Source: a virus
Strand: one strand, 5' to 3'
Length of the DNA: 42,235 nt
UHGV virus genome: UHGV-1993760
Below the pieces are notes generated by a model. That model was not told where the DNA came from, ran no database searches, and saw only the letters and a list, made by a program, of their open reading frames with translations. The position numbers and the translations under genes are program-made. Within the stretch, counting starts at the first letter, position 1. Each line of letters starts with the position of its first letter. This document shows, piece by piece, positions 36,840-38,596 of this stretch.

Positions 36840-37271
36840 ATGATCGATTTTATTGACGCTATAGATGACATCAACAAGCTTTCTGCATCCCTTAACGCAG
36901 CCTGCTTGTTGTCTTCAGGTACCGAGAAAGAGCGAGATGTTTCATATTCATTACTTCTAATTTCAGCTGAACTGGCATCTTCTCTTGCACAAGAAGATTT
37001 TTCACAAAGAAGACAAGAGCGCACTAAATCTTGCCGTCACCTTGCTATGGTGACTATTAGTTCCCGCCTTCGCACCCAACGCGAAGCCTGCGGCTTAACA
37101 ACCGCCGAACTCGCCAGGCTGCTCGATCTCGATGAAGAAATCATCATCCAGTGGGAAAGCGGAGAGCATGAACCAACTATCAGTATGCTTATCCCACTGG
37201 CAAATATTCTTGGCTGCGATCCGATGTGGCTGTTAACCGGTAAACCAACAGCAGGAGATACTTGCGCATGA
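36840..37271 (+). CDS. XRE-family HTH protein (HTH in the C-terminal half)
   Basis: 143 aa; ...LTTAELARLLDLDEEIIIQWESGEHEPTISMLIPLANILGCDPMWLL...; possible own promoter (TTGACT 36779-36784) and GGAG RBS. Confidence 0.55.
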   Translation: MIDFIDAIDDINKLSASLNAACLLSSGTEKERDVSYSLLLISAELASSLAQEDFSQRRQERTKSCRHLAMVTISSRLRTQREACGLTTAELARLLDLDEEIIIQWESGEHEPTISMLIPLANILGCDPMWLLTGKPTAGDTCA

Positions 37272-37633
37272 AAAAGTTCGAAAACATAACCGTTCTCCAT
37301 GTTGATGACTTTGATTATACAAACCCGGAACTTCTCCCGGAGGTTGTAAAGGCAATAGATGTTGCCGATATAGTGATTAGAGGAAAGAGAATTGTCAAAA
37401 ACAGACTCGCATGCACTTCAGGAGCAATGACAGAAACAACCTCACAACAAGATGATTATGAAGGCATTTGTCTGGAGCCGGACTCATTTGCGGTAAATGT
37501 TTATCATTTATTGCATGCAACACAGGTATTACATATGTCCAGTAATCACGAAACAAAAACACTTGGCAGCGAAATTCTGAATTTTGCATGTGAATATGCA
37601 AAATCTGCTGCCGAAAAAGAATTAGCGCAATAA
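37262..37633 (+). CDS. hypothetical protein (overlaps the preceding HTH gene by 10 nt)
   Basis: 123 aa; no recognised motifs. Confidence 0.4.
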   Translation: MRMKKFENITVLHVDDFDYTNPELLPEVVKAIDVADIVIRGKRIVKNRLACTSGAMTETTSQQDDYEGICLEPDSFAVNVYHLLHATQVLHMSSNHETKTLGSEILNFACEYAKSAAEKELAQ

Positions 37634-37829
37634 CAATAAATATTCCCTGAATGTTTATTACGGTTTTATCGCCGGGGATTGTTGCAACCTTTATTCGCAG
37701 GAGATTATGTTATGACTTTCCTGAAACATAAGGCATCGTATAAAACTGCCTGCCTCATTGCACAACATGGAGATTCTTATCTTCATATAGCCAGCCTGTA
37801 TTTGCGCAAAGCATATGGGAGATAAGTCA

Positions 37830-38018
37830 ATGGAAGAAAAACAACAAAACATAACACATAAAAAAGTAAGAGTGTTGCTAACCATTGAAAATGGTGAAGT
37901 AATTTACTCAAAACATCTGTTGGATAATGAATTCGTTGGTTGCATGGATACATTTCTGTGGATGGCAAAAAGAGCTGGCTACACGATTATTCCACCAGCA
38001 AAGGAGCAAACATTATGA
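37830..38018 (+). CDS. small hypothetical protein
   Basis: ATG at 37830 with GGGAG 8 nt upstream; 62 aa; stop overlaps the next start (ATGA). Confidence 0.35.
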   Translation: MEEKQQNITHKKVRVLLTIENGEVIYSKHLLDNEFVGCMDTFLWMAKRAGYTIIPPAKEQTL

Positions 38019-38596
38019 ATCATTCAGAGTTCCGACCAGAAGTTACGCCACATGGCATAAAAATTGGCAATACAACCATTGATTTTGTTGATGCCGTACA
38101 GCGACTTAATGATGGTGAATACGATTATCCAAACTCACACGGTTTAAGAATCATGCAATGTATTGCTGAAGCCGATGATGCAGGGTTGCTGGGACGATTT
38201 TCAGTCGATATGAAGGTTGCTCAGTGGCGATGGCTGTATGTGACGACATTTATAAATGAAGAGGAAGACAAGAACGGCACTGTTGATATCCCTAACGATA
38301 ATGGAACTACAGATCGCGCAGTTATTTACAAGGGGAAACATGGTTGCCTGAGTATCTACCCCGGACCACTTCGCATTGCCCTGCAAAACCATGTCGAATG
38401 GGGATTTATTGAAAAATATGGCGAAGCTGAAGGCATGGGGCGAGTTCTGTTTCTCTATCAAAAAATGCTCATCGCAGATCCTGATAATGGTTTCATTGTC
38501 TCTGCTATGGGGCGCGAAGGGCTTGAACTCCTTCTGGATGAAATGATTAACGACCTGAATACTCATAGTATGCCAGAAGCGCCAGTGACACATTAA
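38015..38596 (+). CDS. hypothetical protein
   Basis: ATG at 38015 with AAGGAG 8 nt upstream; 193 aa; no recognised family. Confidence 0.45.
   Translation: MNHSEFRPEVTPHGIKIGNTTIDFVDAVQRLNDGEYDYPNSHGLRIMQCIAEADDAGLLGRFSVDMKVAQWRWLYVTTFINEEEDKNGTVDIPNDNGTTDRAVIYKGKHGCLSIYPGPLRIALQNHVEWGFIEKYGEAEGMGRVLFLYQKMLIADPDNGFIVSAMGREGLELLLDEMINDLNTHSMPEAPVTH

Follow-up and report, generated by a model that had tools for sequence, protein, structure and literature searches.

The question raised by this locus is what a compact block of genes, placed directly downstream of a phage repressor gene, is for, and whether it is expressed in the lysogen together with the repressor or belongs to an early operon that the repressor controls. 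The block occupies 36840-38596 on the plus strand of UHGV virus genome UHGV-1993760, a stretch of 42,235 nucleotides (nt) that was analyzed as a whole, is called the window below, and was identified as a phiP27-like Escherichia coli prophage adjoining yecE. The region 36200-38700 is 100% identical to strain 52F4, and identity to phiP27 is 96% from about window position 37064 onward. A first-pass annotation of the DNA had described four uncharacterized genes at this position and had proposed that the site is a hotspot for lysogen-expressed exclusion, toxin-antitoxin (TA), or antirepressor modules. The block holds five genes, since a 37-codon open reading frame (ORF) listed there as a possibility is genuine, and it is most likely the promoter-proximal part of a cI-repressed operon of the lambda PL type that extends to xis and int, not a lysogen-expressed module. 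With the phiP27 ORF names as a guide, the five genes were named HTH-X (a helix-turn-helix, or HTH, protein), L08, s37, L07, and L06; all are co-directional with xis and int. In every ORF of the block, nonsynonymous divergence (pN) is well below synonymous divergence (pS), which amounts to purifying selection. Comparisons were made with a set of 80 related loci from IMG/VR together with annotated phages, and counts are given over 82 or 84 loci.

The evidence for this placement comes from the control regions on either side of the repressor gene. The gene upstream of the block was confirmed as a cI-type repressor gene of 161 amino acids (aa) at 36286-36771 (plus strand), with an XRE/DicA-like HTH (HTH_3, E=5.4e-15; NCBIfam DicA subfamily, E=4.5e-19, below the cut-off of that model), and it diverges from an 85-aa cro-like gene on the minus strand at 35948-36205 (Pfam P22_Cro, E=1.6e-16). 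The 42-kb window contains exactly three copies of the motif TCAA-N6-TTGA, where about one match anywhere would be expected by chance. Two of the matches, beginning at 36213 and 36265, are the palindromes 36213-36226 and 36265-36278 of an OR-type operator region (36213-36278) in the spacer between cro and cI, and the third, at 36786-36799, lies in the 68-bp spacer between cI and HTH-X, inside a promoter-like site at 36779-36807. The 18-mer at 36261-36278 recurs at 36782-36799 with 89% identity, and the candidate OL-type operator TATCAATTATAGTTGATA (36784-36801) is a perfect 6+6 palindrome, TATCAA-N6-TTGATA. It overlaps the PL-like promoter candidate on the plus strand, TTGACT-17-AATCAT, which scored 9/12 in the promoter scan.

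A comparable layout was found in relatives with other immunity types. The cI/HTH-X spacer of immunity type C carries an intrinsic terminator (8-bp stem followed by T7) and a TTGACA-17-TATTAT promoter (11/12) with a palindrome between its hexamers, and that of type D carries a terminator, a TTGACA-17-TAATAT promoter (10/12), and a palindrome; in both types, the palindrome is shared with the type's own cro-cI spacer. The layout recurs in a Morganella prophage, where the first gene encodes a hairpin-plus-HTH protein. Read from these motifs, the spacer layout is the OR/OL arrangement of lambda. Because an operator and a promoter stand in the spacer, and because the spacers of the sister types and of Morganella are built alike, HTH-X is very probably the first gene of a separate operator-controlled, PL-type early-left unit reading toward xis and int, and we infer that cI represses the block in this window. 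An Rfam search of 35800-39200 gave no match, and RNA folding of three spacers gave nothing significant.

Two features of the window itself count against this placement: its 68-bp spacer has no terminator, and its promoter reaches merely 9/12. Since no terminator separates the two genes, read-through from the cI promoter into the block is possible in the lysogen. These features bear on the proposal that the block, or its first pair of genes, is a lysogen-expressed module co-transcribed with cI, whether of the type II TA, superinfection-exclusion, or defense kind. Such a module would also fit an HTH gene followed by a partner that overlaps it in an ATGA, as well as the AT-rich, moron-like composition of the block (GC content 0.39-0.41 compared to ~0.52 elsewhere), and it has a precedent in the paaR2-paaA2-parE2 genes of CP-933P, a lambdoid prophage of E. 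coli, which lie directly downstream of a cI-like repressor gene, share a transcript with it, include a recognizable ParE toxin, and are followed by a PL/OL analogue and ORFs of unknown function (PMC8630535). Here, however, the block stands behind its own operator and promoter, the sister types have terminators after cI, and no toxin family is present. Scans of the block proteins with Pfam, NCBIfam, and PADLOC returned no toxin, antitoxin-specific, exclusion, or defense family, and the PADLOC matches were generic HTH matches (RmrA, capH, control proteins) to cI and HTH-X, with none for L08, s37, L07, L06, or the downstream ORFs. A type II TA pair would be expected to include a partner from a known toxin family and to form a conserved tight bicistron, and neither was found: L08 is an acidic protein (isoelectric point, pI, 5.0) with a disordered linker and a hairpin that resembles no known toxin, and the 4-nt overlap between HTH-X and L08 is kept in 12/82 loci, while gaps of 128-131 nt (32 loci) and of ~575 nt (21/82, phiP27 included) are commoner, with an ORF on the opposite strand between the two genes in phiP27. 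The position and its precedent thus remain from the hotspot proposal, but lysogen expression as such a module is improbable on this evidence.

Accessory and regulatory genes of a temperate-phage early operon are a well-known kind of element, and the unit described here resembles the lambda PL/OL region in standing beside cI, in having a cro-cI operator motif placed over its promoter, and in carrying small accessory genes that lead to xis and int. It differs from lambda PL in that an HTH protein gene stands first where lambda has an N-type antiterminator (no N family match was found), in that no nut-like RNA or Rfam match was detected, and in the absence of recombination genes and of kil, cIII, or sieB homologues. 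The ORF list and RefSeq, which annotates the identical locus, give the surrounding order as Q, replication genes, an ash-family gene, Rha/Ant (35244-35951), and the cro-like gene on the minus strand, and as cI, the block, two small membrane ORFs, an SPFH lipoprotein gene, DUF5406, DUF4222, xis, and int on the plus strand. The closest named relatives are L10, L08, L07, and L06 of phiP27 (NC_003356), which are direct orthologues with 91-100% amino-acid identity from the HTH domain onward and are all annotated as "unknown". phiP27 differs in having another immunity cassette (with L11, which has an S24 part, as cI), hairpin type B in its HTH-X, and the ~575-nt L09 insertion between L10 and L08. 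The block had been said to contain no recognizable family, which, the HTH aside, is true of Pfam, NCBIfam, and PADLOC but not of PHROG, where its proteins match families without known function (4739/4836, 5451, 340, and 1515).

HTH-X itself is the most informative member of the block. The gene, at 36840-37271 on the plus strand, was borne out by the ORF check; it encodes 143 aa, has GGAG 10 nt upstream of its start, and matches Pfam HTH_3 over residues 77-131 (E=3.5e-11; 43.4 bits against a cut-off of 23), which places the protein in the XRE/Cro-C1 superfamily, and it falls in PHROG 4739/4836. It consists of an N-terminal hairpin (~36840-37060), a basic linker, and an acidic XRE HTH domain (~37065-37268). 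The XRE domain is 88-99% identical across all loci and immunity types. Among the N-terminal 60-90 residues, at least seven types can be distinguished that do not align with one another (mean column identity, 25%); hydrophobic spacing suggests that this part forms two helices joined by a short loop, and the one predicted structure that supports the hairpin shape is that of the homologous L08 hairpin. Each hairpin type is paired with exactly one cI type (84 loci, seven types), and the DNA homology between immunity types breaks at ~37064, the start of the HTH domain. Judged from these breakpoints, HTH-X straddles the edge of the immunity cassette, with a hairpin that is swapped along with cro, cI, and the operators and an XRE domain that is common to all types. 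The opposite edge lies within cro: the C-terminal tail of Cro, PSLAHTEDGVCEGDKQ (encoded at ~35948-36000, minus strand), is shared with the Cro proteins of other immunity types, and Cro proteins of five types end HPSLAHTEDG(VCEGDKQ), beside the conserved Rha gene. Because this tail is identical across five Cro types, the right edge of the exchangeable cassette is placed inside cro, just as the left edge falls inside HTH-X. We also considered the hairpin as a mimic of its cognate cI or Cro and rejected this, as no similarity was seen in any of eight immunity types.

The domain organization of HTH-X varies among relatives, with some forms carrying a second tandem HTH and others a C-terminal tail. 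The window protein ends (37200-37271) in CDPMWLLTGKPTAGDTCA, which is the ending of the second HTH in the two-HTH forms, while the first HTH of those forms ends CDPLSLLSE (compared: P0081, P0134, and P0112). Given this shared ending, the 143-aa single-HTH form looks like the product of a recombinational deletion between two repeats. The gene is also widespread, standing directly after cI in phiP27, ASU11, phi467, and Stx1/Stx2 (Shiga toxin) phages, and homologues take this position in thousands of E. coli contigs, the Stx1a and Stx2a prophages of enterohemorrhagic E. coli among them. Among complete E. coli genomes, 355/5426 have a match to part of the region.

Two accounts of what HTH-X does have to be weighed, and the conserved domain bears on both. 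Over 62 residues, HTH-X aligns with the N-terminal domain of the P22 C2 repressor, but the start of its recognition helix reads Asp-Glu-Glu where P22 C2 has Ser-Asn-Val, and the HTH domain has a net charge of -6 and a pI of 4.4 compared to a net charge of +6 for the HTH part of cI. An acidic recognition surface is unfavorable for operator binding by XRE repressors, and HTH-X lacks the basic DNA-binding surface expected of an operator-binding repressor. One account is that HTH-X is nonetheless a conventional early regulator that binds DNA as a dimer, whether CII-like or acting as a delayed-early activator or repressor, in which the hairpin is merely a dimerization module whose diversity reflects neutral hitch-hiking with the immunity cassette, and in which the HTH reads a conserved DNA site such as the 40-nt stretch upstream of s37 or one near xis and int. 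This account draws on the clear XRE fold, with P22 C2 and the 434 repressor as best PDB sequence matches, on the label "CII-like regulator" of PHROG 4836, on the variants with two tandem HTH domains, on the interchangeability of the hairpins, some of which derive from the L08 hairpin, and on the canonical basic recognition helix of the Morganella analogue. It draws also on the conserved non-coding stretch itself (37655-37694, plus strand), which has ~92% identity between locus classes compared to ~73% for the adjoining coding sequence, gave no Rfam match and no significant fold, and may be a regulatory site. Set against it are the net charge of the domain, with Glu-Glu where bases are normally read, and the absence of a repeated or palindromic candidate site: 37655-37694 is single-copy in the window, and 36772-38700 contains no short-range inverted repeats of at least 12 nt. 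No CII model of Pfam or NCBIfam matched HTH-X at E<=0.1, and the CII-like label is found in PHROG 4836 and in one phage record that also names its cro-like gene "CII", and nowhere else. This account further leaves unexplained the diversity of the hairpin, which matches that of cI and Cro, and we consider it rather unlikely.

The other account, which we put forward tentatively as a possible role, is that HTH-X acts early to modulate the lysis-lysogeny switch in an immunity-specific manner. Under this scheme, HTH-X would be the first product made when cI leaves the operator; its hairpin would engage a type-specific partner (cognate cI or Cro); and the conserved acidic HTH-like domain would provide a common output across immunity types. 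HTH-X would then act as an early switch modulator in the manner of Coi or MOR and not as a classical operator-binding repressor, and an antirepressor-like role, one of those named in the first-pass annotation, is plausible. Coi of phage P1 is a small early antirepressor that is encoded beside the repressor gene under a repressor-controlled promoter and acts on the cognate repressor. MOR of the lactococcal phage TP901-1 is likewise a small early protein encoded beside the repressor under a repressor-controlled promoter, and it is an HTH protein that binds CI rather than acting alone on DNA (PMC7250872, PMC11149083). The likeness of HTH-X to both lies in logic and extends to no sequence homology, and the interaction of HTH-X with cI is at this point a proposal. 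MOR, moreover, occupies the cro position, divergent from cI, whereas HTH-X lies downstream of cI in a phage with a separate Cro, and neither Coi nor MOR has a counterpart to the combination of a variable hairpin with a conserved acidic HTH. A more specific form of the proposal, in which HTH-X is a widespread switch component whose hairpin docks onto the cognate cI or Cro while its acidic pseudo-DNA-binding XRE domain blocks or redirects that partner, is unlikely as it stands. Taken together, early-left placement and a switch-modulating role for HTH-X are the best combined explanation of the locus, one that we hold with about even confidence.

Several findings weigh against this explanation. 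Physical linkage between two conserved recombination points would give the same one-to-one pairing of hairpin and cI, so that the pairing is no proof of an interaction between them. Sequence comparison of the hairpin with the cognate cI or Cro in the eight immunity types revealed no similarity. In the Morganella counterpart, the HTH is of the ordinary basic kind, suggesting that the protein binds DNA. Literature and database searches found no published work on the block proteins and no functional name for any member. The same searches, as far as they show, leave the architecture of HTH-X, its position at the cassette boundary, and the fold of L06 undescribed. If HTH-X does form part of the switch, it would be a new element in the commitment of the prophage to lysis and in the timing of toxin release, and if the docking form of the proposal were true, derepression would become irreversible, with an influence on induction and Shiga-toxin output in many Stx1 and Stx2 phages. 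The family has some practical relevance, being common in E. coli and present in Stx phages as well.

The repressor of the window has a further property that bears on induction. The S24 peptidase part with its GDSM motif is absent from the 161-aa cI of the window and from the 166-aa cI of type G, while the cI proteins of the other immunity types are 229-258 aa long and include it. Because its cI lacks the S24 part, the prophage is probably not induced by RecA-mediated self-cleavage; induction may instead run through an antirepressor such as the Rha/Ant gene product.

HTH-X and L08, the gene directly after it, had been described as overlapping by 10 nt, which is correct for a TTG start at 37262, but the overlap is most likely the 4-nt ATGA that results from the ATG at 37268, which has AGGAG (37253-37257) 10 nt upstream and opens a conserved N-terminus. 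From this start, L08 occupies 37268-37633 (plus strand) and encodes 121 aa, with a full-length match to PHROG 5451 (E=3.5e-83). The Prokaryotic Genome Annotation Pipeline (PGAP) starts the gene at an internal ATG, giving 68 aa (37427-37633), and because all homologues, even at 45% overall identity, keep the N-terminus MKKFENITVL, this call is probably too short. The family is small and confined to Enterobacteriaceae. The protein has a conserved N-terminal domain of ~47 aa, a disordered linker (48-69), and a C-terminal helical hairpin (71-120), whose helices 71-89 and 94-120 were modeled by AlphaFold2 with a predicted local distance difference test score (pLDDT) of 72-82; the whole model, at pLDDT 60, was too weak for a fold search. 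No match to L08 was found in Pfam, NCBIfam, PADLOC, or PDB sequences.

The L08 hairpin is homologous to the N-terminal domain of HTH-X type D (47% identity over 47 aa, E=2e-11), and a member of the L08 family, P0075, is homologous to that of type E (57% identity, E=3e-19). This relationship recalls SinR and SinI of Bacillus subtilis, an XRE HTH protein and an HTH-less neighbor that share a homologous helical oligomerization module, and raises the possibility that the L08 hairpin heterodimerizes with the hairpin of HTH-X and thereby titrates it. Adjacency of the two genes in 73/82 loci and a weak match of PHROG 4836 to L08 residues 69-114 would fit such antagonism. In the window, however, HTH-X and L08 have no detectable similarity, and the hairpin types do not co-vary, as nearly the same L08 stands alongside HTH-X types A, B, C, D, and E, and one locus (L089) has a type B HTH-X beside an E-like L08. 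The phi467-type loci lack L08 yet keep HTH-X, and the hairpin of HTH-X is N-terminal, which reverses the domain order of the SinR/SinI pair. Antagonism of this type is therefore the least probable of the roles weighed here. Tracking of HTH-X hairpin type by L08 hairpin type was tested across the loci and was not seen. By homology and gene order, L08 is a hairpin-domain paralogue without an HTH that is usually the next gene after HTH-X but is not obligatorily coupled to it. In phiP27 (L002), the ~575-nt insertion between HTH-X and L08, at 4208-4786, carries L09 on the opposite strand.

The remaining three genes form a translationally chained group. The 37-codon ORF, s37 (37712-37825, plus strand, 37 aa, AGGAG at 37699-37703), is by its pattern of substitution a genuine gene, as the divergent locus class retains its length, its stop, and its start (ATG or GTG), with pS=0.71, pN=0.15, and mostly synonymous or conservative changes. 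It encodes a basic protein (pI 9.8), is present in 80/82 loci, and is missing from the RefSeq/PGAP annotation of the identical locus, which probably also truncates the 121-aa gene. L07 (37830-38018, plus strand), a neutral protein of 62 aa, is also present in 80/82 loci, with a ratio of nonsynonymous to synonymous substitution rates (dN/dS) of ~0.2 and a match to PHROG 340 (E=4.5e-24). Neither s37 nor L07 had an informative family match. The ribosome-binding site of L07, GGGAG 8 nt upstream of its start, lies inside the end of s37, and L07 shares an ATGA with the 193-aa L06, as had been described, which chains the three genes translationally. s37, L07, and L06 probably have early roles that are accessory or directed at the host, much as the non-essential genes of the lambda PL operon do.

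L06 (38015-38596, plus strand), preceded by AAGGAG at 38001-38006 as originally reported, encodes an acidic protein with a confident predicted alpha/beta structure. Its model matched no known fold, and sequence searches of the PDB with L06, L08, and L07 found nothing; on the strength of the model, L06 is an orphan alpha/beta fold and could be a target for structural work. A profile search showed its family to be small and stand-alone, with 138 representative clusters among 1.84 billion proteins, and the longer profile matches contained no informative Pfam domains or fusions. L06 is absent in 21/82 loci, and homologues occur in the cI-to-int interval of Morganella and Klebsiella prophages. Because these homologues stand without HTH-X or L07, L06 is, judged by its neighbors, an independently mobile early-left accessory gene. 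The same distribution shapes the view of the block as a whole: because L06 occurs without HTH-X in Klebsiella and Morganella, and because L08 and L06 are each absent from some of the 82 loci (9 and 21), the five genes are best read as a block of at least three independently assorting units.

Some observations on the L06 family and on the sequence beyond the block may be added. In Klebsiella phages, for example KPP5665-2 (L090) at 5001-5579, L06 homologues are labeled "2-polyprenylphenol hydrolase / flavodoxin oxidoreductase"; because no Pfam or NCBIfam domain backs the hydrolase label, it looks like a propagated misannotation. In the Morganella prophage (L085), at 5168-6570, the L06 homologue directly follows an ORF6N (KilA-N-like) gene, with stop and start overlapping, and in phi467 (L004), at 6720-7906, the order is reversed, with the L06-like gene before the ORF6N gene. 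The ORF6N gene is thus a recurrent neighbor of L06 that is absent from the window. Just after the block, a weak AT-rich hairpin with T6 (38604-38629, plus strand, GAAGAAT-ATA-ATTCTTC) folds at -4.9 kcal/mol, an energy that shuffled sequence also reaches; same-class loci have it with small uncompensated changes, and other classes have other genes at this point. Possible readings are a partial terminator and a module junction. The region that follows directly, 38642-39785, contains two small hydrophobic ORFs (35 and 62 aa) together with a gene for an SPFH/Band-7 lipoprotein that weakly resembles HflK/HflC, and may be a membrane-associated module. The PGAP start of the SPFH gene is earlier than the start in the ORF list.

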